Below, in pieces: positions 6,445 to 36,864 of a stretch of DNA of 64,000 nt (position 1 is the first letter of the stretch; each line of letters opens with the position of its first letter). Both the position numbers and the translations under genes were made by a program. Source of the stretch: Octopus sinensis (lineage: Eukaryota); the NCBI RefSeq assembly GCF_006345805.1, contig NC_043011.1, forward strand, positions 10,788,001 to 10,852,000. The letters are read 5' to 3'. The notes below the pieces were generated by a model. The model had not been told where the DNA came from. It worked only from the letters and a program-made list of their open reading frames with translations, and ran no database searches.

Positions 6445-8479
6445 AAGAGAGAGAGAGTGAAGGGGAGATAGAAAAAATAGATGAATATAGAAAACATTTT
6501 ATTTGATATAAATACTATTTTGTAAGGAATATTTTGGGGCAATTTTAACATTTAACATTTTGACGATCTTGCTTTTAGAAATACAAGCTTGAATTACTGG
6601 CTAAATTCTATTTTGGTAAATTCTATTTTCTCATTTATTCTTCTTTACTAATTAACACTAATTTAATCTCCCGCCTCCTTCTCACTCACAATTCCATTAA
6701 TTTCCATCCCTCTCTCTCTCTCTTCAAACTCTTTCTCTCCTTTAACTACTTTATTTGTCTTCTCTTCAGAATTTTTATTGCGCTTTTATAGTTACTGATA
6801 AAAGATCTTTATAGACAAAGCTTCATGTGACCACTGTGTAACAAATCTAAACTCACTTCCCACTAATTCCCTTCATGATCTTACTTCAATTGGTTTCTTT
6901 TCTGCTTTTGTATTTTTGCCAGATTGTAACATCATGAGTTGCATGGACTCTAGGTCTTCTCTTTATTTTTTGTTTCTTGTTTTTAGCTATTTTTCAGTGT
7001 TATGCTATATTGCAAATGTTAATAAATGGTCTGTTAACTCATATTTAAACAGATTCAGTTATTTCCAATGCTTACACTATCAGAAATTTTCAAGTAGATT
7101 TAAATGTTGTGATAAGTGAAATATACTGGGTGTTAGATAACATTATAGTTTAAACAGACAAACAAGGAATACAGCTCTAAATTTTACTTCCTTACCATCA
7201 GTTATTGTCCTGGAAAGAAGTTGTGACAATTTAAGTGATAAATTTAAGTGACAGTTTAAGTGATAAATGTATATAAACTTGTATGATGTTAAATACTCCA
7301 TCCTAGATCATATGTTAAACCTATAAAATATTCTTAACGTAATTTTTTCCTATTATTTTGTTCAACATTCTGAAAGCAACAGATGAATGAATAAGTAAAA
7401 CTCATAAGTAAAACTTGCTGTTGTTTTTCACTTTCTCTGTATCTGTGTGTGCATTTATTGAAAAACCAGATACATCTGAGATGATTAATTAAATAAGACT
7501 TCTTGAAATCTCAGCTCATTAATATTACTGCAACAATTTTACAACCACTGACCCAGTCACCACCAAAACCATCAAGCAACTCACAAATATTATTTTTCTG
7601 TTTTATCTAAAATTACTAACAAATTCTAGACCAACCACTTGTAGCTGGCTATGTTTCTATAAATAACTCTTCTACTGGGATGGGCAAAAGTAATATATTG
7701 AACAGGTGATACTCTTGAATTATTCATCAATAAACTCATTACCAACTGAAACCTGTGTTTAAACCCAAGCCATAACTGATCAAGAATTACAATCTGAAGT
7801 TTTCCAGCAGTAAATATACTGTCTTTTTTTTTTCCTTTCAAAACTTGCATACATAGAACTATATTGTTCAATGTATCTGTTCTTTTAAGACTATAAGGAA
7901 ATGTGCCAGCCATTTCTAACTAGTCATGAGGCTGTGTAGTGGCACCTTAATTGTAGTTGTGTTCATGTGGGCCCCGGTGGCCTAGGGCTCAGAGACACTT
8001 GTTAGAATAACTGTGATCTACAGACCAAGTGTTCCAGACTTACAGCCACCACAGCACACCTTCCGAAATGCAGTTATTGATCATACTGCACATTGCAACA
8101 TGCAATCATATGACATGCAGTGTTAAAGTGTCAACATGGCGTTATAGTAGAGGATTTGGTTGTTGTAGATGTGTCTGTTTATTTAGGGGTCATTCTACAT
8201 GTAGTGGCAAAGGTTTTAAGTGATGGAGTTTACTGCAACAACAAACTTTAGCCCTTGCAACTGGTCTTCTGAATTGCTTTTCTTTCATTATGTATGTGGT
8301 CTACAAGTATCGTAGATGTAAAGAAGACAGTGTTGTAGGAGTGCACACAGCATGTGTACTACAGCAGTACTATGCATAGTTTAAATACTGAGATTGAAAA
8401 GCAGGGGCGAATCATGCCTAACTAATCTACAAAAAAGTAAAATATTTTGCATTAGAATTCTGAGTAGAAATATGTAATC

Positions 8480-8870
8480 ACCAGGGATCAGTCCTCAGCC
8501 CCCTCTTATTCATTATAGAACTCAAGGCAATAACATAGGAATTCAAGACAAGCTGCCCCTGGGAGTTTCTCTATACTGATGATGTTGCTCTAATAGCTGA
8601 GTCACTGTCAGAACTGGAGACGAAGTTTAGGGTGTGGAAGCAAGGTCTAGAATCGAAGGGCCTTAGGGTCAACCTTGCAAAAACCAAAGTCTTAGTAAGT
8701 AGGAAGGCTGTCAAATCATGACTTCCTTCAGGTAAATGGCCCTGCTCGATCAGTAGAAAAAGCATAGGTAGAAACTCCATATGGTGTACTCGGTGTAAAC
8801 TATGGACACATAAGAGGTACAACAATACCAGAGGAAGGTTAACAGGGAAAATAGGTGTAATGGAGATATT
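8480..8870 (+). mobile_element. RTE LINE RT fragment, degenerate
   Basis: HQGSVLSPLLF..CPWEFLYTDDVAL..KTKV..WPCSI; same family as the other RTE copies. Confidence 0.8.
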
Positions 8871-8934
8871 GTATGTAAATGGGTACATTCTGGAAAGGGG
8901 CTGCAATGGTAAATGGCAATGGGGAAGTGAACTG

Positions 8935-9245
8935 GCTTCAATAACATGTAGCATCATCTTCTTTACCACCAGGCGTGCCCCATTGCAGAGTGTTGGTGTA
9001 TCCAAATTCCTCAATAAAGTTCCCACTTTAAGTTCCAATTTGTGGGAAGGCAGCCCTGGAGGCTCCAATGAATTGAAAAATTCTGTTAGATAATTTATCA
9101 CCTCTTCTGGATCTGGGACTGTATCAACTAACTTATAGAGTTGAAGACTTCCAGGAAGGTACTGCAGCAGCTGCCCATTAATTTTACTTACAGTGCTGTG
9201 TTTTGGAGCCAGTATTGCTCTTTCACACAGCCAATTGAGATTGTG
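8935..9245 (-). mobile_element. Helitron PIF1-helicase fragment
   Basis: WLCERAILAPK..YKLVDT..NYLTEFFNSLEPPGLPSHKLELKVG..LLRNLD..LCNGARL is the Helitron helicase C-terminal region. Confidence 0.8.
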
Positions 9246-10713
9246 ATTATTTTTTTACCAATGGAGGATCTCTTGTTTGGAGAAATTATGTCAAGAAATA
9301 TGACGTAATAAAATAAGATGAGAATTGTATGTTAATAATGAAATGTCAATAAAAAAGGCTAAATAATATCAATATTTGAGCAAATTCTAAGAAATACATA
9401 CAATGAACTAAGATGACATTGATATGTAATTAATAAAATATCAATAAAAAACATTAATACCAATATCTTAAAAAGACGAAAAACATTCAATGGATTAATC
9501 ACGCTAGATAGAAGGGAGACAATCAATTTATGAAAGTTACTTTGCAAAAAGTTACATCACTTCTCTACGTAACCCAGGAAAGGGTATTTTCTGCTCCCAA
9601 AGGTCCCATTACTCATTATGTGAAAAATTTTAAGAGTCTAAAACCATCTCTGGAACATAAGTAATGAATGTTCCCAGTTTGGAGAAAATCAGCTGTGAAC
9701 TTCAGAAGTTACACGGATTTACAAATACACACAGTCTGACTTTAATATATATAGACAGACATTATATATTCTGCTTATCCAATATGCAATGTTTTCATAT
9801 ACAGACATGATGGTTTACTTCTAACTTCTTTGTGATGAGATCAAGGCTAAGTTTGTAGGAAGTTGATTAAAACACTCCTTTTATTACTGGTACATATTTA
9901 TTCACTCTTAGTGAGATGGAAAGTAAATTTGACATGGTAGGAACTTGCAATGTAAAGCTAACTTTATATATTCTACTGATCAGTATTTTACCATTTATGC
10001 CAATCCCAAAGCTCAGTATTATAGGAAAGAGAATTTTAATCAAAACATTTGTGGTATAAATTATGTGAAATTCTTGAACTGACAATTGAAAGTCTGTCAC
10101 AATCTCATTTTGTACAGATCTTAGTTTTATTTCTCTGTCATTCACCATCCACCACAAAGTATTTCAGGAGTGTCATTTTACTGAGTCATAAAATGAATCT
10201 CTCTGGAATAAATAGCAACAATATAATAGGCTGAGGGCTATTTTCAGTTGACCAAACTGAAACAGTGCAGGCTCTCGTATATGTAATAAAGTGAGTAGTG
10301 TTTTATATACAGTGGGAAGGCCTCATATACGCACGCAATAGAAGGAACTGTAAAACTTCAGTCAGCTAAAAATATGCAAGCAATTAGTAAACAAAACTCT
10401 ATATGGAAGATTTTTAGAATGCAGCAAGGAAAATAACTCAAATGAGACCTCCACAGCAAAGCCTAGTGATAAAAAATTATTTATTTATGTATATACTTAC
10501 TTTTATTTGTACTAACATTGCTTGTACTAATGCTTGTATAGCAACCACCTTGAGTGAAGGCAGGTGTAACATGAATGAGGGTAGATTAAATGGCAGGACA
10601 ACTGTTATATGTCAGTTGGCAAATGCTCATTGGAGCCTTTTTTCTGGATGCTGAAATCTACTGTTCTCCCCCACCCATGTTACCTCCTGCCACCTACATT
10701 CCCTCAGAGTTGG

Positions 10714-11242: not shown

Positions 11243-12734
11243 CTCCTGCAATTTAAATTAAAAGTTTATAGTTTGTAAGTGCACATGATATATTTCTCTA
11301 ACTTGTATCTGTATAGAAAGACAGAGATGACCAACAGCAACATCACTACACCTGACAGTTAAAATGTGATATCACATCATGCTATCTTGAGGTAAAGGAT
11401 ACCATCTAACAATCAATAAACAATCAGATTCATTATGGGTCTTTTTTTTATCTAGATATTTTCAGTATTTTGTGTGTGTGTTTACAAATAACTTACAACT
11501 TACCTATTTTCCAACTGAATAAACTATTTATGTATTTATGTATGCCAGTATTATCATCAGTTTATCATTTATATATTCACATTTTATGCCGGCAGGGTTG
11601 AACAAATCATCATAGTCAAAGTTAAATCCTACTGGAAACTGCTACTTACGTGTGTGTGTGTGTGTGTGTGCGTGTGTCATGTGTGATAGAAGAATGGTTG
11701 ATACACAAATTACAAACCAAAAGAGGTTAGTTCAATTTCCGTTTCAAGCTACCCTTTTCATTTGTTGTTTTTATCTCTAAACTTATGTTTAAATATCATA
11801 TTCTAAGCCTGTTTCAAGGGTGTGTTAATTTCATTCTAGCAGGGAAAGCATTTGCACAAATCAGAAAATGTGTTGTTTATTGATTTCTGTATCAAAACAA
11901 GCATCTTTCGTGGGGAGGGGTACTTAGGGCAGAACGTGTAAGGCATTCATCATTGGAGTGACCAAATCAGGTCAGAACACTGTTTCAGGCAACACACCAG
12001 CATTTGGAACCAAGCCCTGTATTTTTAACACCAACAAAATATTATTTATGCCATTCTACATTTGTATACACATTATAAATATTATACACACTGGTATTTT
12101 AATCTAAAGCTATTTCAAGTGCATATATATTCATACATAAATATATATACACATCATTTGATCCCCACTTTCCATACTGGCATGAGCCGGATGATTTCCC
12201 ACAACCCGACAAATTTCTTATTGAGAGCACTTCTCTCAAAAACATTTGGCTTGGCTTCAATGGTTGGATGCTAATCACTTTAGAAAGTGCATTTCCTCAT
12301 GGCATTAGACATTGATAAGCCTTTGGCATGCCACAATTCTCAACTTCATCTAATCATTTGCCAACCACTTCCCAGTAAGTACCCATGGCACCAACACTGA
12401 TCACTCACAAGGAATGTGGCAGGAATTGAGAAAGGACTCAATAATCTAAAATGTATAGAGCAGAGAAGAAAATATAAGAGATGAGAGCAGAAAGGCCAAA
12501 AACGATTGGATAAGAGGGGAAGTACTCATAAACCTAGAGTGTGTACACTCACTTTAAGTGACCAAGGAGGGGAATAGGAGAGATTGTTCTAATGTCCAGC
12601 TTTTGCATACTTGCATGTATTGGTCAGATTTTATTGAGGCAGATTTTGTGAGAAAATGCCCTTCCTGTTGTCAAGATATTTCCCCACACATTATTTACAA
12701 TTGATGGACATTTGTCCTCATCTTGTTTGTTGTT

Positions 12735-12777
12735 AACACGTTTCGGCTGATATACCCTCCAGCCTTCATCAGGTGTC
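12735..12777 (-). ncRNA. Minimal type I hammerhead ribozyme motif (canonical core)
   Basis: gacac CTGATGA a ggctg gagggtatat cagcc GAAA cgt gtt: intact core and 5-bp stem II; 3' side slightly eroded. Confidence 0.7.
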
Positions 12778-12804
12778 TTGGGGAAATTTCAACCTGGGTT
12801 CTGC

Positions 12805-12835
<31 letters not shown>

Positions 12836-12912
12836 TAGGTCACTGCCTGGAATCAAACTCTGAATCTTTGGGTTAATAGCCTGCGCTCTTAACCACAACA
12901 CCATATATCCGT

Positions 12913-12985
12913 GGGCAAATGGCGTAGTGGTTAAGAGCACGGGCTACTAACCCCAAGATTCCAAGTTTGATTCCAGGCAGTGACC
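12913..12985 (+). promoter_or_regulatory. tRNA-like Pol III head (A box TGGCGTAGTGG, B box AGTTTGATTCC); mirrored at 12838-12910 on the minus strand
   Basis: GGCGTAGTGGTTAAGAGCACGGGCTACTAACCCCAAGATTCCAAGTTTGATTCC has D-arm, anticodon-arm and T-arm spacing but no acceptor stem. Confidence 0.75.
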
Positions 12986-12987
12986 TA

Positions 12988-13039
<52 letters not shown>

Positions 13040-13107
13040 TAATAATAATAACAACAACCATCAACAAATACTTTAGGAATGAGAACCCGGGTTCGAAATT
13101 TCCCCAA

Positions 13108-13150
13108 GACACCTGATAATGGCTGGAGGGTATATCAGCCGAAATGTGTG
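13108..13150 (+). ncRNA. Hammerhead motif, second arm (G8 mutated to A)
   Basis: gacac CTGATAA t ggctg gagggtatat cagcc GAAA tgtgtg. Confidence 0.55.
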
Positions 13151-13510
13151 AACAAGAAACAAGATGAGGACAAATACTGTCAATTGTAAATAATGTAAAT
13201 AATGTACATAATTCCTCATCTCTTAAATATAGAACCGTCTTATTTTATTTCCCTGTGACCAGAAACATTTTCACACAACATTGGAAAGAAACTAGCAAAG
13301 CCTGCATGATAGTGACACTTGTTTACAACTATCAAACACTGTGAAGACAAAGAAACACACACACACACACACACTCACACACTCACTCTCACAGATACTT
13401 ATATATCTATAAGTACATATTATTATCGACATCATCAGCAGCAGCAGCAATGTCAACCACATAACACACATTGATATATATATATACACACACACACACA
13501 CAAATATATA

Positions 13511-14148
13511 TTAGGTTGGCAACTAAGTTCCCGCTGTTTTTTTAAATTTAAATTTTTTTAAAGGTTTAATAAAAAATAACAACAATAATGTATTCACCCT
13601 TGTTGTTTACAACTTCTTCCCAACTTTCAACAAGATTTTCAATACCTAGTTGGTAGAAGTCACCCGATTTCGACTCGAAAAATTGATCCAGCCAATCTCT
13701 CAATTCTGCAACAGTATTGAAAGAAACTCTGTGCATAGCATTTGAAAGAGATCGAAAGAGGTGCCAAATCAGAAGAGTATGGCGGGTATTTGTAGCACTT
13801 CCCAGCCATGCGTTTGAATGGCTTCCTTGGACATATTGGTGATATGAGCACGGGCGTTGTCATGCAGCAGAAGAACTCCATGCTGCCGATTAGGTCTTTT
13901 CTCTTGAATAGCCATGTTGAATCGTTCCATCTGTTGAACATAGAGTTCCATGTTGACCGTTTAGTTCCGTTCAAGCAATTCGTAATGGATAATCCCTTCT
14001 CAGTCTCACCATACGCACAACATCATTTTATGTGGATGAAGATCTTGTTTCATGTGCAGTGTTGCTTGTTTACTGGGGCTAAGCCATTCCTTACGCTGCT
14101 TCATGTTGATGTTCAGGCACCATTTTCTGTTACCAGTAACAATTTGTC
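13511..14148 (-). mobile_element. Mariner transposon, 3' half with one TIR, degenerate
   Basis: TA followed by TTAGGTTGGCAACTAAGTTCC TIR; transposase motifs IVTGNRKW (decayed TGDEKW), LLHDNARAH, PPYSSDLAP; ends at the RTE junction. Confidence 0.85.
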
Positions 14149-15564
14149 CACCAAGGTTCAGCCCTCAGTCCCCTTTTATTTATCATAGTCCTCCAGGCAA
14201 TAACAGAGGAATTCAAAACAGATTGCCCCTGGGAGCTCCTCTATGCTGATGACCTGGCCCTCATAGCAGAATCACTACCGGAACTAGAAAAGAAATTTCA
14301 GGTGTGGAAGCAAGGTTTAGAATCAAAGGGCCTTAGAGTAAATGTAGCAAAGACCAAAGTTATAGTAAGCAGAAAGGCGAACTCATCACACACACCCTTG
14401 GGCAGGTGGCCCTGCTCGATCTGTAGGAAAGGTCTAGGTAGAAACTCCATAAGATGTACCCAGTGTAAGCTATGGACGCATAAGAGGTGCAGCAATATGA
14501 AAGGGAAATTAACTGATAAGATAGCTTTCATATGCGGCAGATGCACAGGGACAATAGACACCACAGATACTCAGAAAACAGATTCCATCACACTCCAGTG
14601 GGAGAAACCAGAAGTAGTTGATAGTTTCCGCTACCTAGGTGACCAAGTTAGTAGTGGAGGTGGATGCTCAGAGAGTGTCACCACTAGAATACGAATAGCC
14701 TGGGCAAAGTTTAGAAAGCTCCTACCCCTACAGGCGACAAAGGGTCTCTTGCTCAGAGTGAAAGGTAAATTGTATGATGCATGTGTGCGAACTGCCATGC
14801 TTCATGGTAGTGAAACATGGGCTATGACTGCAGAGGACATGCGTAGACTTGAAAGAAATGAAGCTAACATGATCCGCTGGATGTGTAATGTCAGTGTGCA
14901 CGCACGACAGAGTGAAAGCGCCCTGAGAGAAATGCTGGACATAAGAAGCATCAGATGTGGTGTGCAAGAGAGACGCTTGCTATGGTATGGTCATGTACGG
15001 CGGATGGATGAGGAGAGATGTGTGAAGAAGTGCCGCTCCCAAACAGTTGAAGGTATCAGGGGGAGAGGTAGACCCAGGAAGACATGGGATGATGTAGTCA
15101 AGCATGACCTCTGAGCGTTGGGCCTCACAAAGGCAATGACGAAGAACCGAGATCTCTGGAGATATGCTGTGACTGCAAAGACCTGGGCTGCTTCCTGCAC
15201 CAGTTTCGCATAGCCCCAGCCCATTCAAAGTACCTTGGATTGCAGAACAACCTGCTGTGCTTGAGGAGACCTATTGAGTCAAGTACATGAACATCGAAAT
15301 AAATATCAAATGGAAATAGTAGTTGTGATACCTGTGCCAGTGGCACGTAAAAAACACCATCCTAACATGGCCAATGCCAGCTCCCCCTGACACCTGTGCC
15401 CACTACACTCACAGAGTGGTTGGTGTTAGGAAGGGCATCCAGCTGTAGAAACACTGCCAGATCAGACTGGAGCCTGGTGAAGCCCCCTGGCTTCCCAGAC
15501 CCTGGTCGAACCGTCCAACCTGTGCTAGCACAGAAAACAGATGTTAAACGATGATGATGATGAT
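14146..15564 (+). mobile_element. 5'-truncated RTE LINE (RT C-half with PHD insert, 3' UTR, (GAT)n tail)
   Basis: HQGSALSP..ELLYADDLAL..KTKV..C4HC3..FRYLGD..LHGSETW..GRGRPRKTW (ORF 14302-15114). Confidence 0.92.
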
Positions 15565-19907: not shown

Positions 19908-20007
19908 NNNNNNNNNNNNNNNNNNNNNNNNNNNNNNNNNNNNNNNNNNNNNNNNNNNNNNNNNNNNNNNNNNNNNNNNNNNNNNNNNNNNNNNNNNNNN
20001 NNNNNNN
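19908..20007. other. Assembly gap (100 N)
   Basis: Run of N flanked by CT-rich repeats. Confidence 1.
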
Positions 20008-20081
20008 TGAAACTGTATACAGCCTCTTATTTACCTTGGCACCTTCCTCTCTCTCTCTCTATCTATCTATCTATCTTTCTT

Positions 20082-20112
<31 letters not shown>

Positions 20113-20873
20113 ATCTCCCTCTCTCTCTCTCTCTCTATCTATATCTCCCTATCTCTCTCTCTCTATATATATATAGATAATATAATATTGTTATAATTCT
20201 TTGTATGTGTGTATTTTTATCTCTTCTTACTATAGTTTTAATCCTGTAGAACATTGCAGTATTTTTATATATTGTATTTATAACCAAAACTGCTCCTTTC
20301 TATTTCCTCTTCTCTTCTACACTTCCTCCTACTCTGTCTATCTGTCTCTGTCTGTCTGTCTCTCTCTCTCTCTCCTTTTCTCTGACTCACTTCCTCATCC
20401 TATGCAGCAATGACAGATACCTCAAACATTCATGTCAAATGCTAAGAGCCAATGGGGGAGCTTCTGCATGGGCAGTCTCCCTCAAACCACACACACAATC
20501 TATATTTGGAAAACTGAGGTCCTGAATTCCGTATACATATGAAAAAGATAGAATGGTCAAAGCTGGTGTACTTTTAATTATAAGTCTCCTAATCATGGTT
20601 AACCTGGTGTTAAATAATGACAAACCAAACATTGTCTTACTTGGACTGTTTCCCTCATTGTTTGATGGCCTCAATAGAAAGCTCTCCATGATAACTTTCT
20701 GTTATCACCACCTACTCCATCATCGTTATCATTGCTACTAGCATTACACTCCTCTTTACATTTATCTCTACTGTCAGTTTTATCTACTGTCTTTAGAGGC
20801 AGATGATATTCTCATTGCTATTATCTCTCTACTCACCAACAGAAATATTTCTCATATAAAGCATAGCCGTTCT

Positions 20874-20911
<38 letters not shown>

Positions 20912-21196
20912 TAGAGTACAACAAACAAGACTAAGTCTTAATTATCTAAATGTCACATCATTAAATATGTAAAACACACACATTGTGGTACAGCTGCTTA
21001 CTTGTGTATGGATATATAAACTTGTGTAGTATTGGAGTAGAAATATATATATATATATATATATTAATAAAAGGAATTCCAACCTTGTCTGATTTTCACG
21101 TTTTATTTACAATCTTATAATGATATATTATAAGATAATATATTATAATTGAATAAAATAAAATGAAATAGTAGAATGTTAAATGTTCATTCTGAT

Positions 21197-21241
21197 TGAA
21201 CTAGTACTTTCATGCATTGAATTCTGCAATCTTCGGGTTCA
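21197..21241 (-). ncRNA. Minimal hammerhead motif, U4C variant (inverted arm)
   Basis: Reverse complement of 24578-24622. Confidence 0.7.
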
Positions 21242-22204
21242 TGTAGTAGTGGTGACAGTCATGCTTCACAATTTTTGACTGTAGCAAGATGATTGATTCT
21301 GTGCTATAAATACAGCTGGGTAGGCTCCAGAGTGCTAGGTTTTGCAAACTGTATTCTGACCAATCAGTGTGTATCACTCATTACTTAAGCTGATTGATTG
21401 GTTGGTTGAGCTGATTGTTTTAGGCATCACGCTTTGTTGGACATGTCAAGAGTCCTGTATCTTGACCCTGGCCGAAGCAGCAATTGTTGGTTATTTTTAG
21501 AAATGTTGTAAATATCCTTTGTCAGAGATTTTTATATTTTTATATTTCAATGTCATCATCATCATTGTCAGCACCTTAATTATTGTTGCTAGTGGTGATG
21601 GTGGTGGCAATAGAACTTTTAACCCTAAATAAGATAATTTTCCTGCTATCTTCATCTTGATCACCTTTAGTATTGTTGTTGTTGTTAGTGGTCATGGTCG
21701 TAGCAGTGAAAGTAGTACCTCTAAGTATTATTATTATTGCTTATTTAGCTTGGGTTTGAATTTATCAATAAAATTATTTTCTCTGATTCTCCTCTCGATT
21801 TCACTTGGGCTGTGTAATTTGTAGAACGGAAATATTATATACATTTTCCGGCCACATGTTGCTAGGTGTTACTCAAAGTATCTGACGGACCTCTGGGTCT
21901 CTAATCTGTTGTCGGTGTACACGTGAGCATTCTGATAGTGCATTTCCCATCTGACCTACATATATTTCTTCACAATTTGGGCATTTGATGCAGTAAATTA
22001 AATTTCTGCTTTTGCAGTTCATATTCGCGTTTGTGAATATTTTCCCGGTTTTTGTGTTTATATATTGACTGGTATGTATGAATTGGCATGTGCCACATCG
22101 GCTATCATTGCATTTAGATACCGTGAATGTTTGGTCTTTGTTGCTAAGGTCAAATTTTGCCTTTGTTAGTAATGTTTTCAAGTTTTTAGGCTGTCTTTTA
22201 CTAA

Positions 22205-24083
22205 AACGATCAAACAATAATAATTAAACAAGCAGATAAAGGTGGTGCAATTGTTATTATGGATACCGAATACTATAAGGATTTGGTTGAAGACCAACTG
22301 AAGGATACAACCTTCTATTGTGAAATACCCGCAAATATAGACCACCACATCATGAAAAAGATCAACAACCTGATCTCAACACACCACAACTCACTTACAG
22401 ATAATGAAAAAGACTACATCACCAATTTCGAACCAAAACCCAGCAACTTCTACGGCTTACCAAAAATACACAAATCAAAAAATATTCAACAGGCAGTAAA
22501 AGAACAAGAAAGTGAGTACATAAAATTACTACATCCAAAAGACCTAAAACTTGGACCTATTATAGCTGGTCCAGCATGCCCTACACACCGTCTAAGCAAT
22601 TTTATTGACATTGTTTTGAAACCACTATGTACTTACATACCCAGTTTCATCGGGATGACATCGACTTCCTGTCTCATCTTCCCAAAACAACAGAAACAAA
22701 TTCAGTTTTACTAAGTTTTGATGTGGTAAGCCTCTACAACCAATATTCCACACGATTAGGAATAAAGGCGATTAAATACTGGTTAGAAAAACATAGAGAA
22801 GTGATTCCTAGCAGATTCACAGTGCCATTTATATTAGACACAGTCAAACTTATTCTAGAAAATAACACATTCTTCTCTCAATGGAAAGAATTACATCCAA
22901 ATTAGAGGCACGGCGACGGGAACGAGTTTGCTCCCGTTTACGCCAACTCTGTAATGGGATACTTAGAACAACAACTCTACCAAGAGGTGGAGGTAAACTA
23001 TGGCACTGGATTTAGAAAGTATATTGAATAGGCATGGAAGAGATCCTAGACGACTGCTTCATAATCTGGACAGAATCTCTAAATACTCTGGAAGAGTTCA
23101 ATATCCTCCTGAACAACCTACACCCATCTCTCCAATATACAAAGGAGATGAATAGTACCAAATTACCATTCCTAGATATAATGGTAATTAAAAAAGACAC
23201 CACCATCACCACAGCTATATACTATAAACACACAGACACACATCAAAATTTTAAGTCGTGCCATCCACCACATACAAAACGTAACATCCCATACTGCCTA
23301 GCCAGAAGAATTTGTACCATTGTAGAAGATGCAAATATCAGGAACAAACGCCTAATAGAACTAAGAGAATTTTTGCTCAAACAAAAATACCCATCTCTAC
23401 TTATAGAAAATGGCATACAGCGGGCTATAAAAATACCCATACAACAACTTAGGACACCCAAGGAAGAAGGAAAACAAGAACAAGTCATACCATTCATAGT
23501 GACACACAACCCATGTCACCAGAATATCTTCAACATTGCCAAAGCAAACCTACCAATCATTGCCCAAAGTAATGAATTAAAAGACATAATCACGGATCGA
23601 GCTATGGTGCTTAGTAAAAGACAGCCTAAAAACTTGAAAACATTACTAACAAAGGCAAAATTTGACCTTAGCAACAAAGACCAAACATTCACGGTATCTA
23701 AATGCAATGATAGCCGATGTGGCACATGCCAATTCATACATACCAGTCAATATATAAACACAAAAACCGGGAAAATATTCACAAACGCGAATATGAACTG
23801 CAAAAGCAGAAATTTAATTTACTGCATCAAATGCCCAAATTGTGAAGAAATATATGTAGGTCAGATGGGAAATGCACTATCAGAATGCTCACGTGTACAC
23901 CGACAACAGATTAGAGACCCAGAGGTCCGTCAGATACCTTTGAGTAACCACCTAGCAACATGTGGCCGGAAAATGTATATAATATTTCCGTTCTACAAAT
24001 TACACAGCCCAAGTGAAATCGAGAGGAGAATCAGAGAAAATAATTTTATTGATAAATTCAAACCCAAGCTAAATAAGCAATAA
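22205..24083 (+). pseudogene. PLE RT/GIY-YIG ORF with several frameshifts (ORF pieces 22259-22714, 22627-22905, 23034-24083)
   Basis: Contiguous PLE motifs across frames; the breaks I inspected look like 1-nt deletions (e.g. WKR[F]LDD). Confidence 0.9.
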
Positions 24084-24399
24084 TAATAATACTTAGAGGT
24101 ACTACTTTCACTGCTACGACCATGACCACTAACAACAACAACAATACTAAAGGTGATCAAGATGAAGATAGCAGGAAAATTATCTTATTTAGGGTTAAAA
24201 GTTCTATTGCCACCACCATCACCACTAGCAACAATAATTAAGGTGCTGACAATGATGATGATGACAATTGAAATATAAAAATATAAAAATCTCTGACAAA
24301 GGATATTTACAACATTTCTAAAAATAACCCAACAATTGCTGCTTCGGCCAGGGTCAAGATACAGGACTCTTGACATGTCCAACAAAGCGTGATGCCTAA

Positions 24400-24515
24400 A
24401 CCAATCAGCTCAACCAACCAATCAGCTTAAGTAATTGAGTGATACTACACACTGATTGGTCAGAATACAGTTTGCAAAACCTAGCACTCTGGAGCCTACC
24501 CAGCTGTATTTATAG
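24400..24515 (+). promoter_or_regulatory. Candidate PLE pseudo-LTR promoter (CCAATCAG x2, CTGATTGG, TATTTATA)
   Basis: Three CCAAT boxes followed by a TATA-like box about 65 nt upstream of the hammerhead; AATAAA at ~24711. Confidence 0.5.
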
Positions 24516-24577
24516 CACAGAATCAATCATCTTGCTACAGTCAAAAATTGTGAAGCATGACTGTCACCACTACTACA

Positions 24578-24622
24578 TGAACCCGAAGATTGCAGAATTC
24601 AATGCATGAAAGTACTAGTTCA
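24578..24622 (+). ncRNA. Minimal hammerhead motif, U4C variant
   Basis: tgaac CCGAAGA t tgca gaattcaa tgca t GAAA gtac TA gttca: 5-bp stem I, 4-bp stem II, palindromic AGTACT stem III. Confidence 0.7.
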
Positions 24623-24799
24623 ATCAGAATGAACATTTAACATTCTACTATTTCATTTTATTTTATTCAATTATAATTATTATCTTATAATATATCATTA
24701 TAAGATTGTAAATAAAACGTGAAAATCAGACAAGGTTGGAATTCCTTTTATTAATATATTCTTCTATACACAATCACACACACCCATATATATATATAA

Positions 24800-24961
24800 A
24801 GTTAATCCAAACAAGAAAACAAAAAAACACAACAACGCAAGGACGTGGAACAAATAAAGTATTATTGGACGCTCAGGAAAGAAGGAGGGTTTAATGTTTC
24901 GAGCGGAGCTCTTCGTCGGAAACATAGGAGAAGGAAAGATCCCGAGAAGGGAAGACAGAGG

Positions 24962-24993
<32 letters not shown>

Positions 24994-25088
24994 GCCGGTG
25001 GTACTCACGAGGTCACATACAAACATACTAACACAAATGTTTATATATATATATATATATATAAACATTTGTGTTAGTATGTTTGTAT
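24800..25088 (-). mobile_element. Short PLE-type terminal fragment with hammerhead (24889-24923) and a 72-bp palindrome (25017-25088)
   Basis: gttt CCGACGA a gagc tcc gctc GAAA ca TT aaac on the minus strand; palindrome centred on (TA)n. Confidence 0.6.
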
Positions 25089-25128
25089 ACACAAACTCAG
25101 ACACATATATCTGGTTTGTGAGGAATGT

Positions 25129-26458
25129 ATCATCATCATCGTTTAACGTCCGTTCTCTATGCTAGCATGGGTTGGACGGTTCGACCGGGGATCTGGGAAG
25201 CCAGAAGGCTGCACCAGGCTCCGGTCTTATCTGGCAATGTTTCTACAGCTTGATGCCCTTCATAACATCAACCACTCCATGAGAGTAGTGGGTGCTTTTT
25301 ACGTGCCACCTGCACTGGTGCCAAGCGAGGCTGGCATCGGCCACGGTCGGATTGGTGCATTTTATGTGCCACTGGCACGGAAGCCAGTCGAGGCGGCACT
25401 GGCTTCGGCCACGATTCGGATGGTGCTTTTTACGTGCCACCGACACGGAAGCCAGTCGAGGCGGCGCTGGCATTGGCCACGATTCGGATAGTGCTTTTTA
25501 TGTATCTCCAGTCCAGGGATCCTGGCATCTGCCGGGTGCCAGTCATAGGATTGGTTCAATTTCGATTTCACCTGCCCCAACAGGTCTTCGCAAGCAAAGT
25601 GTCTTCGGTGCCTGTCGTCGGATGAGGTTCGATATCGACTTCACTTGCCTCAACAGGTTTTGTGTGTCCAAGGGAGGAAAGGCATGCATAAGTGGGCTGG
25701 ACTCACTTGTCCTGCCAGGTCTTCTCACGCACAGCATATTTCCAAAGGTCTCGGTCACTGGTCATTTCCTCAGTGAGGCCTAAAGTTCGAAGGTCGTGCT
25801 TCACCACCTCGTCCCAGGTTTTCCTGGGTCTACCTCTTCCACGGGTTCCCTCAACTGCTAGGGATTGGCACTTTTTCACACACCTATCTTCAGCCATTCT
25901 CGCCACATGACCATACCAGCACAATCGTCTCTCTTGCACACCACAACTGATGCTTCTTAGGTCCAACATTTCTCTCAGGGTACTAACGCTCTGTTGAGTA
26001 TGCACACTGACATTACACATCCATCGGAGCATACTGGCTTCATTCCTCGCGAGCTTACACATGTCCTCAGCAGTCACGGCCCATGTTTCACTGCCATGTA
26101 GCATGGCTGTTCGTACACATGCATCATACAGTCTGCCTTTTACTCTGAGCGAGAGGCCTTTAGTCACCAGCAGAGGTAAGAGCTACCTAAACTTTGCCCA
26201 GGCTATTCTTACTCTAGCAGTTACACTTTCAACGCACCCACCCCCACTACTGACTTGGTCACCTAGATAACGGAAGCTATCAACTACTTCTAGCTTTTCC
26301 CCCTGGAAAGTGACGGAAGTTGTCTTCTGCAGATTTTCAGAGGTTAATGCTCCTGAGCATCTGCCACATACAAAAACTATCTTCCCAGTTAGCCTTCCTT
26401 TGACATTGCTGCACCTCTTATGTGTCCATAGCTTACACTGGGTACATCTTATAGAGTT
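25129..26458 (-). mobile_element. 5'-truncated RTE LINE with minisatellite-containing 3' UTR
   Basis: ORF 25703-26167 KGRLYDACVRTAMLHGSETW..GRGRPRKTW; (ATC)n at the left end. Confidence 0.92.
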
Positions 26459-26479
26459 CCAGGTACATCTTATAGAGTA

Positions 26480-27400
26480 TGTATATCATTATTCAGTTTA
26501 TTTCAAGATTTCTTTCCAATAGAGAAAGAACCAGTTTCTAACCTAGATCCAAGGCTCCTTCATTGGAATTTCAACAACAGAGTGTGTGCATGTGTATTCC
26601 CATGCATATAGTTACATATCTAGACATGCTCATATATATTTAAATGATAAAGCTCTGGTAAGTTTTAGAGATTTTTACAGTTCTAGTGATGGATTGGATC
26701 TGTAGTCTTCAAATTAGCGTTCTCCTTTCTGGTTTTGAGAGGCCTAATTTCTCAAGATTTGTATATAGGCAGTGTGTTGCATAATTCTGGATGCAGATTG
26801 TCCCAATATGATTTCAATTGTTACATATAGCCAACAGTGGGGTTTTGCTTTGCTTTTCCGTGGCAGTTAAATAGATCTGTAGTGGTTAAGGGTGTGTCAG
26901 TATGTATTGAGGTAAACAGAGGTGACAGGCATGTGGATGCCTTCCAAGAAAATAATTGAATGACATCGATTTACAGTTTAACTAATTTATTTACTGTACT
27001 TGCATTATTTGTTGGTATTCACAATTCTTCACTACATGTATTTGTTCACAACTGCAATGAGTTGGGAGGAATAAAAACAGGGTACATCTGTGTAGGTGAT
27101 ATGTTAGAACTGAATATGTTTGTGTCTGTGTGTGTGTGTCGTTCATCTGAGAAAGTAGTCTCGGCCATGTCCCTTCGTTCGAACCTTTCTCTTGCTCTCC
27201 ACCTGTCTGTCACAAACCTTTCAGACTGCATCCTAGGCCATTCTTGTCTGTCCCTCTGATGACCACGGTATTTATAACAGCCATGGTAGCTAGAAGGACA
27301 GACATACTGCAGCAGAGATTGTGTCTAAATAGGTCAGTTGAACTTTGCCTGACATGGCTGAGGCCGTAGGTCAAAAGGAGATGATTTATCATTTTTTGAC
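26480..27400 (-). mobile_element. Highly degenerate PLE-like remnant
   Basis: VVIRGTDKNG (ADKG-like) precedes PVTSVYLNT (DVxSLYTN-like); decayed CCAATGA...GAAACTGGT at 26524-26572; related segment inverted at ~45.4-45.6 kb. Confidence 0.4.
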
Positions 27401-28101
27401 AGGACAAAGAAAATTATTTTCACACCTGTTGGTCGTGGTGGTTCAGAGTGAGAATCCTTAGATTCAGTTTCGAATCTAAGCTTGGAGAAGGGAAGTGTTA
27501 ATTTTTACAGATCATTATTCAATTCATAACTCCAAGAGAGATGAGTTTTGTAGTTACAGTTTCTTCTAGAACTACAGCTAGAAATTGTTTACCTGCTCAA
27601 CTGTTGTTTTTGTTCTGTTCCTCAACTGTGTTGTTGTTGTTGTCGATGTGTCCAGCCATGTTGTTTGTAGTAACTCTCTGCATGCTAAATTCAAGTTCCA
27701 GCTGCAAATCACTACGATCATGAATAAAAGGCTCTCTCAGTTAATTCCTCTGAAGATTAACCAGTTATTTAACAAGGCCGACAGTTGTGGCTCCAAAGTT
27801 GGATATAGTATTCGTTGTATTTTTGATAAATTATCTCCCATGCCAAAACACGCAACTTGTCACTTTGAGTATGTATGTAAGTTTTTCCCTCAGACATATT
27901 AGGGATACACTGTCTGGGAAGCATGCAAAGCAATGTCTTCCCAGATTAAACTATGAATAGTAATTACTAGGACTTAACCCGTTGCTATACTGCCATTAAA
28001 TATATTTGTTAATCATGCACAGACCTTCTTTTAATAATAGACGGTTATATGGTGAAAGTTACATTAGTTACTATGGTGACAATAGTCTACATATCTTGCT
28101 A

Positions 28102-28133
<32 letters not shown>

Positions 28134-28294
28134 GCATACACACACACGCATACACACACGCACTATTTCACTCTCAACAACAAAAAGCTGTCTTTTTTCT
28201 TGAAACAAATTCTAATTCTATCTTTCACTCTCTCTCCATCTCTCCCCCTCTCTCTCTCACTGAAATTTCCTCTCAACAACAACAACCAGTCATT

Positions 28295-28675
28295 ATATCT
28301 TTTATCTTTTACTTGTTTCAGTCATTTAACTGCAGCCATGCTGGAGCACAGCCTTTAGTCAAACAAATCAAGTCTAGCATTTATTCTTTGTAAGACCAGT
28401 ACTTATTCTATTGGTCTCTTTTGCCGAACCACTAAGTAACAGGATGTAAACACACCCGCATTGGTTACCAAGTGATGGTGGGGGGAGGAAAAACAAAAAC
28501 ATATACATATATACATACGACGGGCTTCATTCAGTTTCCATCTACCAATTCCACTTGCAAGGCTTTGGTCAGCCAAAAGCTATAGTAGAAGACACTTGCC
28601 CAAGATGTCACGTAGTGGGAATGAACCCAAAACTATATAGTTGGGAAGCAAGCTTCTTACCACATAGTCATGCCA
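28295..28675 (-). mobile_element. Composite tRNA-derived SINE (head, microsatellite linker, body, AAAGAT tail)
   Basis: Head like 571-717; body like 35430-35650 and 58340-58625. Confidence 0.75.
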
Positions 28676-29015
28676 GTGCTTTACTTTTTTCAAGTCTAGT
28701 ACTTATTCTATTGATATCTTTTGTCGAACCACTGAGTTATAGGGACATAAACAAAACAACACCAGTTGTCAAGTGATGGTGGGGGACAAACACAGAAACA
28801 AAGACACACACACACATATTGTTATGGTATATTCTGTTAAGAACATAGTAGAGTACAGTATAAAGCTGAACCACCTTCAAATTTCATACCACATTATCCA
28901 GTAGTAATATCATACATACTTCCACATTTGCATTTGGTTATCTGTCATGTGTGAATAGATAATTGAAAAAATTGGGAGTCTACAAGAAGGAGTACAGTTG
29001 GACATTTATTTTTTA

Positions 29016-29121
29016 ATCACTACAATTGTTTGCACGCAATGTAGTTCACCAGGCATGCAAATACTAGATTATGCAATTGTTTCCCTGCATCACGAGAACT
29101 AGTTGTGTTTCCTCAGGTGAT
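29016..29121 (-). ncRNA. Hammerhead motif with long stem II region, G12 decayed
   Basis: atcac CTGAGGA ...~77 nt... cAAA caattg TA gtgat: perfect 5-bp stem I, palindromic ACAATTGT. Confidence 0.55.
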
Positions 29122-29216
29122 ATGTAAATATATATATATATACATATAAAAGAATTTTTTGCATAATAAGATAAAAAAAAACAAGGCTGTGTAGATATTA
29201 AAGCAGTTATAGATAG

Positions 29217-29262
29217 GTCTTACAGCTGTTTCTAGGATTAATTATATCCCTTCATCGGAGAT
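29217..29262 (-). ncRNA. Minimal hammerhead motif, U4C variant
   Basis: tct CCGATGA aggga tataattaa tcct a GAAA cagctg TA aga. Confidence 0.65.
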
Positions 29263-29771
29263 GGTGTGAGAGGATAGTTAAGTCATAGTTAGTTTAGATG
29301 TGATACAAAATACAGATTGAGGTGGAGGAAAGAAAATAGATGCAAGATATGTATGGGTATTGAAGTTGTAAATCCATTTTTTAGGCATAATGGTATATAT
29401 GCAATATTCCAATATCCTATGAATAAAGTCCAAAAGTCCAACAGAGTTTAAAATGAGTCCATCCAAATATAGAGTTCATAAGCAATGTAAGATTCCCTTA
29501 GGAGTGAGATCCTGCAGATTTTTAAACTTGGTTATTCCCAGTAGAGAATTTATATAGAGTGTTGTAGAGTCAAAGGTTTGAGACAGCCTTGCTTCTTTAA
29601 TTTCATTACGCAAAAAATTCTTATATACACACGCTGACATAGAAACAATGTTGAACCCTTTATTCGCAATATTACCAAATCTGGAACTTAACTATGGTCT
29701 GTCTATAGCATTACCTGACACCTTTGGGTTTCAATGATACCATTATCTCTTATCTCTTATATATATATATA

Positions 29772-32137
29772 TCACTTGTGCTAAATGAGGATACAAAGAG
29801 AGAGGTATGGAGACGCCACTATGAAAGGTTGCTGAATGAGGAAAATGAATGGGATAAAGAGAGTCTGCCGAATGTCGACCCAACAGAGGGACCAGCAATC
29901 CGAGTTGACAGTTCCTTAGTAGTTAAGGCAATTACAAGCATGAAAACAGGGAAAGCCCCAGGCCCATCAGGAATTACTGCAGAGATGCTCAAAATATCTG
30001 GTAGTGTCGGCTATAGCCTAGTCACCCGTATAGTTAACCAGGTGATACACGAAGGAGTCATACCCAATGACTGGTGTAGCAGCATAATAGTCAACTGCTA
30101 CAAAGGTAAAGGTGGTGCCCTAGATACAAATAACTACAGGGGTATCAAGCTGCTGGATCAGGTAATGAAGGTTACGGAGAGGGTTATAGCCCAACTAATT
30201 AGAGAGAGAGTTAGCTTAGATCAGATGCAGTTTGGGTTCGTGCCAGGGAAAAGTACTACTGATGCTATATTCCTGGTGAGACAGCTGCAGGAGAAATACC
30301 TAGCCAAAGATAAGCCCCTGTACCTGGCTTTTGTTGACATGGAGAAAGCCTTCGACAGGGTCCCCCGATCCCTTATCTGGTGGTCAATGAGGAAACTAGG
30401 GATAGATGAATGGTTAGTGAGAGCTGTGCGAGCCATGTACAAAGACGCTGCTAGTAAGGTAAGGGTTGGCATCGAGTACAGTGAAGAATTCCGGGTAGAG
30501 GTTGGGGTCCACCAAGCTTCAGTCTTCAGTCCCCTCCTATTTATCATAGTCCTCCAGGCAATAACGGAGGAATTCAAGACAGGATGCCCCTGGGAGCTCC
30601 TCTATGCTGATGACCTTGCTCTAATTGCTGAGTCACTATCAGAACTGGAGGAGAAGTTTCAGGTGTGGAAGCAAGGATTAGAATCGAAGGGCCTTAGAGT
30701 CAACCTAGCCAAAACCAAAGTCCTAATAAGTAGGAAGGTAGACCAATCACAAACGACTTCAGGTAGATGGCCTTGCTCGATCTGTAAAAAAGGTGTAGGT
30801 AGAAACTCTATAAGGTGCACCAAGTGTAAGCTATGGACACATAAGAGGTGCAGCAATGTCAAAGGAAGGCTAACTAGGAAAATAGTTTTTGTCTGTGGCA
30901 GATGCTCAGGAGCAATAAACACTGAAAATGCACAGAGACCAACTTCCACCACATTTCAGAAATAGTTGATAGCTTCCGTTACCTAGGTGACCAAGTCAGT
31001 AGCGGGGGTGGGTGTGCTGAAAGTGTAACTGCTAGAGTAAGAATAGCCTGGGCAAAGTTTAGAGAGCTCTTACCCCAGCTGGTGACAAAATGTCTCTCGC
31101 TCAGAGTAAATGGCAGACTGTATGATGCATGTGTACGTACAGCCATGCAACATGGTAGTGAAACATGGGCCGTGACTGCTGAGGACATGTGTAAGCTCGC
31201 AAGAAATGAAGCCAGTATGCTCCGATGGATGTGTAATGTCAGTGTTCATAATGACAGAGTGTAAGTACCTTGAGAGAAAAGTTGGACCTAAGAAGCATCA
31301 GTTGTGGTGTGCAAGAGAGACGTTTGTGCTGGTATGGTCATGTGGCGAGAATGGCTGAAGATAGTTGTGTGCAAAAGTGCCACACCCTAGTGGTTGAGGG
31401 AACCTGTGGAAGAGGTAGACCCAGGTGGTGAAGCACGACCTTCGCACTTTAGGTCTCACCAAGGAAATGACTAGAGACCGAGACCTATGGAAATATGCTG
31501 AGCGTGAGAAGACCCGGCAAGACTAGTGAGACCATAACCCGTGGCCTCTACCTGGTATGTAGCCAGTCGACTTATACATACCTTTCCTTCTTGGGACACA
31601 AAACTCCACTTGTGAAGACCCGTTGAGGGAAGTGAAAATCAAAATCAAAATCAAAATCAAAATCAAAATCAAATCAAATCAGATATCAGAAAGCAGAACC
31701 AAAATCGAAGTCGATCAACATTAATGGAAATTGCGGCTGTGATACCAGTGCCGGTGACAAGTAAGCGAACCATTTGATCATGGCCGTTGCCAGCGCCGCC
31801 GTGACTGGCCTCCGTGACGGTGACACGTAAAAAGCACCATCCGTTCGTGGCCATTGCCAGCCTCGCCTGGCCCCCGTGCCGGTGGCACGTAAAAGCACCA
31901 TCTGTTCGTGGCCGTTTGCCAGCTCCGTCTGACTCCTGTGCGGGTGGCACGTAAAAAGCACCCACTACACTCGTGGAGTGGTTGGCGTTAGGAAGGGCAT
32001 CCAGCTGTAGAAACACTGCCAGATCATACTGGGCCTGATGCAGCCTTCTGGCTTCACAGACCCCAGTTGAACCATCCAACCCATGCTAGCATGGAAAACG
32101 GATGCTAAATGAAGATGATGATGATGATGATGATGAT
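29772..32137 (+). mobile_element. 5'-truncated RTE LINE containing the whole RT domain, inserted in a (TA)n run
   Basis: ORF 29724-30965 MKTGKAPGPSGI..NYRGIKLL..QFGFVPG..FVDMEKAFDRV..LYADD..PHD; (GAT)n tail; (TA)n on both flanks. Confidence 0.95.
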
Positions 32138-32148
32138 ATATATATATA

Positions 32149-34539: not shown

Positions 34540-34934
34540 CTAGCAGTATCGCCCGGCGTAGCTCGGGTTTGTAAGGGAAATAATTATATAAGCATTTTTA
34601 GAGATGTAAAGTATAATAGCCATCTCAATATGGCTAACCACAAAGGGGGAGGGGTGTTACTGTAGCTTTTTACGTTCTGAGATTTAATAATAAATTTTAG
34701 AGAGTTACTTCCCTTATATATGTCAAAAATGGATTAAAAATGGGAAAAATTGATGGTAAATTTTTTTTTAAATCGTAGACTCATCGTAGACGCGCGCTAA
34801 TACCCAGACGGTCTCGATATGAATCACGACTATAAGATACCCGGTTTTGGTTAAACTGCACTGCAAAATGTGGGAGTAGTTAGGAATCTAAATCGTAGGA
34901 GACAGACACACAACCTCACTTTTATATATAAAGA
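34540..34934 (-). mobile_element. Non-autonomous Helitron (395 bp)
   Basis: Minus strand A|TCTTTATATATAAAA...CCCGAGCTACGCCGGGCGATACTGCTAG|T: 5' TC, 3' hairpin + CTAG, AT target, no TSD. Confidence 0.85.
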
Positions 34935-35028
34935 TTTCCTCTATTTACATAATATTGAGGTCTCTTTCTTTCTTTTGTTATCTTACTGTTTTTACCAATA
35001 TACATATATATATATAATATATATATAG

Positions 35029-35350
35029 TTACAGAGATGTACTTGCATAGCAAGTGACTTGATCTGAGATCGTGTGCTGGAACGAAAACAGTTGCAGCGT
35101 TGAAGGTGTTTATAAGCCATTTAAGAAACACACAAAAACCGTTAGATTCACTTCAACATTTAAATTTAATTTGTCAAAATATTTTCGTCGCTTTGAGACC
35201 GCGACCTGTGAGCACGATATTTTTGTCAGTGAACAGGTCGCAGTCTCAAAGCGAGGAAAATATTTTGGCAAATTAAATTTAAATGTTGAAGTGAATCTAA
35301 CGGTTTTTGTGTGTTTCTTAAATGGCTTACAAACACCTTCCACGCTGCAA
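35029..35350. mobile_element. Palindromic fold-back element (arms 35092-35209 / 35233-35350) carrying a hammerhead variant, flanked by (TA)n
   Basis: ~118-bp near-perfect inverted arms; extension on one arm only (35029-35091). Confidence 0.85.
35222..35272 (+). ncRNA. Minimal hammerhead motif, G3-C8 core variant
   Basis: tttgtca GTGAACA g gtcgc agtctcaaa gcgag GAAA atat TT tggcaaa; the opposite arm supplies the perfect gcgac and tgacaaa. Confidence 0.7.
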
Positions 35351-35715
35351 TATATATATACACACAAATATATATATGTATGTATGTATGTATGTGTGTA
35401 TATGTGTATGCATGTATGTGTGTGTGTGTGCGTGTCTGTGCTTGTGATTGTCCTCCACCACTGCTTGACAACGAATGTTGGTTTGTTTACATCCCTGTCA
35501 CCTAGTGGTTTGACAAAGGAAACAGATAGAATAAGTACAATGCTTACAAAAATAAAACTGGAGTTGATTCATTAAACTACAATTCTTCAAGGCATTGCCC
35601 CAGCATGGCCACAGACCAATGGCTTGAAAAAGCAGAAGAATAAAAGAATACATTCTCTGCTTTGGTCTTATGTTCAAGGCATGAGAAAGCTTGAGTTTAC
35701 ATGAGAAGGCCTAAC

Positions 35716-36000
35716 AGACCTGGTAGAAACAGCAGCCAAATCTCCCTCAAATCACACCTCATTGTCTTATGTATGTATATATATATGAGCCAATGAGGGG
35801 GACCTCTACATGGTAGCTAGACCTGGTAGAAATAGCAGCCAAATTTCCCCCAAATCACACCTTACTGTCTTATCTATGTATATATGTATGTATGAGCCTA
35901 TGAGGGAGACCCCTACATGGCAGCTAGACATGGTAGAAATAGCAGCCAAACCTCCCTCAAATCACACCTTACTGTCTTATGTATGTATATATATATATAT
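35716..36000. repeat. Tandem repeat, ~3 units of 103-107 bp
   Basis: AGAC(C/A)TGGTAGAAA(C/T)AGCAGCCAAA..AAATCACACC starts at 35716, 35819 and 35926. Confidence 0.9.
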
Positions 36001-36299
36001 ACAAGCCACTACGGTTATTTAATGTAAAGTCTTCCTCAAATCACGCTCTCACTATTTACTCTCTTCCAAGAACATTTTCACTCACTCTTATCTGTTAGCT
36101 TCCCATACATTTTACTCATGTATCTATCAGCGTCATAGACAGAAACAAATATTACATCGCCATCGCATTCTATTGTCTACCTGTCAACACACAGTGAATT
36201 AGTTTCAGTTTATTCGTTGCACACTGTGTGTGTGCGTTTGCGTGTGCTGTAACCCAAACTAAGAAAAGCATTTGACATATACACCAGAATGTGAGTTTT

Positions 36300-36470: not shown

Positions 36471-36548
36471 TTTATAATAAGATATATATATATATATATA
36501 TATATATGTATTATGTATATATATGTATATATATATATATGTATATGT

Positions 36549-36834: not shown

Positions 36835-36864
36835 TATATGTATATATATATATGTATATATTAT

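Follow-up and report, generated by a model that had tools for sequence, protein, structure and literature searches.

At positions 12688–13238 of the window, the 64,000-nt stretch of Octopus sinensis contig NC_043011.1 analysed here, two arms run outward from a common centre, each built around a tRNA-like head, an (AAT)n spacer and a hammerhead ribozyme motif. This 551-nt inverted structure, the single such element in the 64-kb window, had been read in a first-pass annotation as a non-autonomous, Pol III-driven SINE mobilised by the machinery of Penelope-like elements (PLEs), which raises the question of what kind of element left it there and whether its head ever worked as a promoter. We conclude that the palindrome is almost certainly a dead minimal insertion, a stub of the terminal repeat (pLTR), of an autonomous Penelope/Poseidon-type element. 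In itself such a palindrome is commonplace debris of PLEs; what is unusual is the tRNA-Arg-derived head within the pLTR.

Structure of the palindrome and its surroundings

The features of the window copy are the following.

12677–12684, + strand: left copy of a probable, decayed target-site duplication (TSD); 8 nt exact; weak
12688–12910, − strand: left arm, an inverted tailless pLTR that stops at the internal reverse-transcription start
12735–12777, − strand: left minimal type-I hammerhead; core intact, predicted cut site lost by a 3-nt deletion
12805–12835, − strand: left (AAT)n spacer
12838–12910, − strand: left tRNA-Arg-like head; A box 12893–12903 (2 mismatches), B box 12850–12858 (1 mismatch)
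12901–12922, no strand: fold centre, with GT at 12911–12912; decayed version of the short hairpin found before the head of the parent element
12913–12985, + strand: right tRNA-Arg-like head; A box 12920–12930 perfect, B box 12965–12973 (1 mismatch)
12987–13060, + strand: right (AAT)n/(AAC)n spacer
13079–13238, + strand: decayed first codons of the parent PLE ORF; ATG at 13079, frame crossing hammerhead and tail
13108–13150, + strand: right minimal hammerhead; mutated core CTGATAA, 3-nt deletion
13197–13238, + strand: one-sided PLE tail of 42 nt, with 9 nt duplicated; family tails measure about 33 nt
13246–13253, + strand: right copy of the probable TSD; 8 nt, offset by 7 nt

The centre proposed earlier at about 12911 was confirmed at 12911–12912, with complementary arm segments matching at 92% (12805–12904 and 12919–13018) and 94% (12710–12790 and 13095–13175), and only the right arm is extended, by 42 nt where about 40 had been estimated. 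The four parts attributed to the arms (head, spacer, hammerhead and tail) are all present, but the A and B boxes are not all intact, both B boxes having one C>T change each and the left A box two mismatches. Similarly, the CTGATGA hammerhead core claimed for both arms is found in the left one, while the right reads CTGATAA. The statement that there is no ORF was misleading, as the ATG at 13079 starts the N-terminal codons of the parent ORF, which continue through hammerhead and tail. About 25 nt are missing from the left arm between its (AAT)n run and the hammerhead, and both arms lack the 3 nt after GAAA that form the predicted cleavage site of the family consensus. Neither arm retains the complete set of core, stems I and II and stem-III remnant of a minimal type-I hammerhead, and Rfam and ARAGORN called neither a tRNA nor a hammerhead in the window copy or in a better-preserved one. 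The 3′ end of the left arm falls within positions 135–157 of the tail query, an end class that holds 80 of 192 family ends, and three bases beyond the TSD repeat may reflect CpG decay.

Several other mobile-element remains were observed in the window. LINE reverse-transcriptase fragments lie at 14140–15114 (+), 29709–30965 (+) and 46470–47471 (−), two of them with a PHD finger match, alongside a Mariner-type transposase (62886–63899, −) and a PIF1-like helicase (32346–33461, −), the latter frame being presumably Helitron-like. Near-perfect hairpins at 25017–25088 and 35150–35291 gave sub-threshold miRNA models and are probably MITE-like. A 351-codon frame at 23028–24083 (+) resembles by eye, with no Pfam match, the thumb, Zn finger and GIY-YIG of another PLE family.

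The unit is the terminal repeat of an autonomous element

The 2.72-Gb genome was searched with the 3′ part of the window's right arm, and 30 loci were fetched; at locus L003 a GIY-YIG-like frame lies immediately upstream of the head. The GIY-YIG piece of L003, used as a query, returned 2,656 candidates, and in all 30 loci fetched from these (27 distinct insertions, including the query locus) the head lies within a few bases of the GIY-YIG end, followed by hammerhead and tail in 24. A search with the 5′ end of a near-complete copy (L062), which has an RVT_1 match in a Pfam scan, showed the tail continuous into the ORF in 27 of 30 loci. Because the head adjoins the end of the endonuclease (EN) and the tail runs into the ORF, the unit as a whole, from head to tail, is an autonomous element's pLTR. 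An autonomous PLE sharing hammerhead and tail, which the first-pass annotation had advised looking for, thus exists, and the connection of the unit to a reverse transcriptase (RT)/GIY-YIG ORF supports the earlier attribution of the palindrome to PLE machinery. The proposal of a separate non-autonomous family with a borrowed PLE end did not hold, the unit being the autonomous element's own pLTR with no subfamily split.

A majority consensus built from 66 fragments is open for 800 codons, or 835 counted from an ATG upstream of the hammerhead, and a 131-fragment pile-up altered just 2 of its positions. The consensus is a single ORF encoding an RT followed by a C-terminal GIY-YIG, as in EN+ PLEs, and the pLTRs with their hammerhead flank the ORF and overlap its start. 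By eye, the EN is not N-terminal, unlike in Naiad, and no Zn finger of the kind found in Neptune and Nematis separates RT and EN (clade definitions after PMC8557442). The GIY-YIG was not called in Pfam scans of family copies and was recognised by eye; Atlas neighbours of the family protein bear RVT_1, HTH_animal and GIY-YIG, and homologues P0001–P0019 are 55–66% identical to it. Pfam also missed the RT of a decayed copy (L172), though this is 68% identical to P0002. The 3-nt and 9-nt indels common in the family pLTR preserve the frame. Contigs of two further organisms carry pieces of both pLTR and ORF, while a scan of viral contigs found no relative and one of metagenomes a single 45-residue match at a contig end, without a pLTR.

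A second PLE family, about 29% identical, was observed at L201–L207. It carries an additional cysteine motif ahead of the endonuclease, looks Neptune-like by eye and comprises two subtypes about 70% identical. Its frames are long and stop-free, so it is probably younger; it served as a control.

Footprint of insertion

The 3′ ends of family copies fall into two classes: among 192 ends, taken from loci of several searches rather than a random sample and after dropping 23 duplicates or unrelated loci, 80 were short, 101 long and 11 other. One long and one short end were combined in 59 of 63 divergent pairs, and 35 of these 59 are flanked by a TSD of at least 10 nt with at most 1 mismatch, compared to 0.9 in shuffled pairings; TSDs in the family measure 10–14 nt. 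An inverted 5′-truncated copy, a one-sided tail and a TSD thus recur across the family, the window copy being one with a weak TSD, and the suggested PLE-type inverted duplication is well supported. All three features have been published for PLEs: inverted copies, one-sided tails and palindromic junctions are reported in PMC8557442 and PMC3846280, and PMC11167929 describes two RT start sites flanking the tail, with both nicked strands extended. The "divergent promoters" of the first-pass annotation are accordingly what a known type of head-to-head PLE insertion leaves behind, and in the window copy both have decayed.

Both arms of one insertion come from one source or subfamily, since arms of the same insertion match at three diagnostic sites (43/45, 39/43 and 40/43). 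For the 3-nt deletion in the hammerhead, no such concordance was seen (27/35, P=0.12); the deletion is recurrent, so finding it in both window arms proves nothing. The longer arm was the tailless one in 31 cases and the tailed one in 20, with 29 symmetric, such that no order of arm synthesis is discernible, and the centre dinucleotides were GT (7), AT (4) and AC (3). An identical insertion was observed at several places in two cases (L247, L248, L250, L251 and L035–L037, L039), as segmental or assembly duplicates.

A tRNA-derived head, a hairpin and a minimal hammerhead

The head is probably derived from a tRNA, judging from its alignment to the genome's own tRNA genes. Among 10 tRNA types compared, the best match was tRNA-Arg(ACG), with 50 of 73 positions identical and a score of 70 against 59 for the next, the Arg genes having been fetched by a motif they share with the head. 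In the pLTR consensus the A and B boxes are perfect, scored against the general box consensus, and the acceptor and T stems are broken; the tRNA-related head with A/B boxes that characterises tRNA-SINEs is thus found in the consensus and is decayed in the window copy. A tandem tRNA-Arg(ACG) array was observed elsewhere in the genome (G000:C2:3121920-3157893, L307–L333), with about 90 motif matches mostly spaced at about 206 bp.

At the 5′ end of the head, pLTR positions 1–24 form a small hairpin (−9.5 kcal/mol), and it is this hairpin that forms the fold centre. Downstream, the family consensus has a minimal type-I hammerhead with core, stems I and II and a palindromic stem-III remnant (fold per PMC4209133), supporting the PLE-type minimal hammerhead proposed earlier. 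A CUGAAGA variant of the core occurs in 11 of 20 upstream pLTRs versus 14 of 101 head-start arms (L070–L092 and others). Read ends from the fragmented RNA libraries showed no pile-up at the predicted cut.

Abundance and a hot spot of 5′ ends

The hammerhead 22-mer has 5,866 exact genome matches, the head 2,764, the ORF–head junction 398 and the palindromic centre, searched with a pattern of two fewer fixed bases, 342, with 0 matches for every reversed control; these counts suggest a family of roughly 20,000–37,000 arms. We took 89 loci among the first 100 hammerhead matches listed, leaving 86 after 3 duplicates were dropped. Of these arms, 40 are headless, 9 begin late in the head, 30 begin within pLTR 1–35 and 7 enter the ORF, so that 30 of the 37 arms reaching the 5′ part of the head end within 35 nt there. 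This is also the hot spot of inversion in the family, with its 342 exact palindromic centres and 398 ORF-linked junctions genome-wide. An inverted partner was found for 51 of the 86 arms. Three loci (L224, L244 and L287) are monomers beginning at the head beside a 10–14-nt TSD-like repeat.

Did the head serve as a Pol III promoter?

The sense strand of the family appears depleted of Pol III terminators. No TTTT occurs in the whole 2,658-nt unit. For the ORF, 2.7 are expected in a synonymous shuffle (P=0.035–0.038), 5.1–5.3 in a codon model (P 0.003 or less) and 2.1 in a first-order Markov model (P=0.12), GGGG being likewise absent. Nine control ORFs from the window and the loci, including two other PLE families, contain 2–14 TTTT runs each. 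When the weaker TVTTT terminators measured in mammalian SINEs (PMC8466645) are included, the 835-codon ORF has 1 motif versus 9.6 expected in the codon model (0/2000) and 5.5 in the synonymous shuffle (P=0.009), and 5 control ORFs show no depletion (P 0.09–0.96). This test was post hoc, with mostly single copies as controls and just two other PLE families sampled, and a simulation of neutral TTTT gain in copies, which ignored CpG context, was uninformative. The sole terminator-like motif, a TCTTT situated 76 nt beyond the tail, is conserved in 25 of 31 copies. Taken together, the 5′ stops at the head, the terminator depletion and the position of TCTTT suggest that Pol III used the family head.

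RNA reads are evidence neither way on the promoter. Three runs of related label held 7,350–10,565 family reads among 11.5–12.9 million, with coverage of about 3,000–4,000-fold over hammerhead and tail and about 3–35-fold over the 5′ part of the ORF. Both strands are equally represented, so that the reads are unstranded in effect. Coverage mirrors the structure of genomic copies, and read ends cluster loosely at the two genomic end classes; we read this as read-through of embedded copies. Neither starts nor ends pile up in these reads, and no GT..AG joint occurs among those listed. Neither a TATA/Inr nor an intron was seen.

Our preferred explanation, to which we give a probability of about 0.55, is a dead two-pLTR PLE insertion whose tRNA-Arg head likely served as an internal Pol III promoter. 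A Pol III transcript from the head may stop at the leaky TCTTT and provide the short, SINE-like template of most copies, or may pass it, read the terminator-poor ORF and provide a full-length template. By analogy with the biochemistry of PAc (PMC11167929), the RT/GIY-YIG protein would nick both strands of AT-rich DNA, and reverse transcription would start at two sites about 33 nt apart, leaving a one-sided tail. Insertion would thus proceed by two-ended target-primed reverse transcription by the PLE protein, with the arms joining at the small hairpin 5′ of the head, the expected start of a Pol III transcript. Confidence differs between the parts: that short templates begin at a Pol III promoter in the head seems somewhat more probable than the contrary, whereas it is doubtful that Pol III additionally makes the coding RNA. 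Equally tentative is the picture of an autonomous coding retrotransposon living on Pol III, with a 2.5-kb ORF purged of terminators and a leaky stop just beyond the RT-start region, through which one master would make the uncapped coding RNA as well as a short SINE-like one and the element would be its own SINE.

The main competitor, which we consider quite possible though not favoured, is a PLE stub with a passenger head, captured from an old tRNA or SINE, in an element transcribed by Pol II or by read-through. The built-in hairpin could then explain the 5′ stops at the head: a −9.5 kcal/mol structure at pLTR 1–24 would favour fold-back or annealing, and of the 30 head-start arms, 21 have an inverted partner. 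PLEs are known to form palindromic junctions, and since rotifer Penelope (PMC3846280) has palindromes at its pLTR 5′ ends and head-to-head junctions without any tRNA, the hairpin alone can explain the 5′ hot spot. Templates often began upstream of the head, since among 8 copies with an upstream pLTR reaching the head or beyond, 5 continue into EN sequence and only 3 start in the head, although tandem read-through could explain those five under either polymerase. The Markov test (P=0.12) and the A-rich sense strand also lean towards a passenger. On the other hand, A and B boxes stay perfect in a broken cloverleaf, terminators are depleted under two codon-aware nulls but not in controls, and monomers begin at the head beside a TSD. 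Outside this family, characterised PLEs have spliced, Pol II-type transcripts (PMC8557442), and Kojima holds that autonomous elements must use Pol II (PMC10886601).

Short copies and the case for a separate lineage

An independent tRNA-headed SINE lineage, with short masters of its own and PLE proteins acting in trans, is improbable. It would fit the observation that the ORF is reached by no more than about one in seven of the arms with a head (398 vs 2,764; 7/46); moreover, in rotifers the pLTR alone is reported to suffice for trans mobilisation (PMC3846280), and solo pLTRs keep the promoter, such that some could be secondary masters. However, the pLTR of the ORF-bearing element comprises the entire unit with its head. 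Among 30 loci picked by the head, hammerhead and tail follow in 24, which bears out the head–hammerhead linkage expected in other copies, the ORF lies upstream in 7, and the head is joined to another SINE body in none. Head-start and ORF-linked arms share the same alleles at 17 variable sites (smallest P 0.007, uncorrected) and have similar divergence (5.0% vs 5.7%), within the limited power of 177 nt compared. We thus saw no separate SINE lineage: the short copies share the variants of the ORF-linked subfamilies, rather than forming an independent non-coding lineage with only its 3′ end in common with a partner.

A retrozyme (a ribozyme-cut circular RNA unit) or a DNA MITE is hardly conceivable: a hammerhead and a terminal inverted structure are present, and animal retrozymes have been proposed as PLE derivatives (bioRxiv 10.64898/2026.07.22.740005), but copies end at the two PLE start sites, 55–90 nt beyond the predicted cut, are dispersed and variably 5′-truncated with unequal arms, and have 10–14-nt TSDs and an RT/GIY-YIG partner with no transposase. 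The retrozyme reading floated earlier, as well as the MITE named as a refuting alternative, can therefore be set aside. Neither the head-to-tail, cut-bounded units with intact hammerhead of a non-LTR retrozyme nor the equal terminal inverted repeats, short fixed TSD and transposase partner of a MITE were found.

Comparison with known elements

Octopuses reportedly carry tRNA-derived SINEs (OK, OR1 and OR2) of tRNA-Arg origin, said to have been described by Ohshima and Okada in 1994; their head, possibly also of tRNA-Arg type and in a similar animal, may overlap with that of the present family. OR2 is a CORE-SINE (PMC4758252).

The closest architecture is that of Anolis PAc (PMC11167929) and Adineta Penelope (PMC3846280), which share the pLTR–ORF–pLTR layout, an RT with C-terminal GIY-YIG, and a hammerhead and tail overlapping the ORF start. 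According to the same sources, Penelope/Poseidon PLEs also have two RT start sites and a one-sided 30–40-nt tail, head-to-head pLTRs with a palindromic junction, TSDs and solo pLTRs. Compared to PAc and Adineta Penelope, the octopus pLTR opens with a head that derives from tRNA-Arg and carries A and B boxes, followed by an (AAT)n spacer; Pol III terminators are almost absent from the sense strand, and TATA/Inr and intron were not seen. The hammerhead has the fold of metazoan PLE minimal hammerheads (PMC4209133), namely type I with a 5-bp stem I, an unpaired base before stem II, G10.1–C11.1 and palindromic bases replacing stem III (dimer type); both window copies are damaged, and cleavage is predicted for the family. 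Opposite-strand pairs of minimal hammerheads 100–700 bp apart are reported in the same paper.

Combinations of promoter and ribozyme or repeat are also known. The schistosome Sm-alpha and Sj-alpha repeats (PMC6765202) have a Pol III-type promoter followed by a hammerhead in short, often tandem, non-coding units, whereas in octopus both form the terminal repeat of a coding element, and the minimal hammerhead does not determine where copies end. TRIMp3 elements (Helenus, Ajax and Cassandra; PMC10886601) place a small-RNA-derived Pol III promoter inside a terminal repeat, yet are non-autonomous LTR elements of 0.3–1.3 kb, as opposed to the repeat of an autonomous 2.7-kb PLE. MRC1 (PMC8557442) and animal non-LTR retrozymes (bioRxiv 10.64898/2026.07.22.740005) are short units sharing PLE pLTR sequence in head-to-tail arrays, with no tRNA head described in the available portions of these sources. 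No autonomous PLE with a tRNA head in its pLTR was found in the literature searched, including the portions consulted of two papers on cephalopod repeats (PMC13282606, PMC8967140); one may be present in Repbase, Dfam, SINEBase, Ohshima and Okada 1994, or supplements.

Implications

The thousands of paired arms provide data on the insertion step of PLEs, and automatic tools would likely split this family into a "SINE" and a "Penelope". Pol III RNAs are uncapped. Should the head prove to be a functional promoter, it becomes a testable question how such an RNA, which also bears a hammerhead, is translated. The family would then be an autonomous retroelement that encodes protein yet relies on Pol III, contrary to the view that such elements need Pol II (PMC10886601), and would offer a route from a PLE to a SINE-like element.
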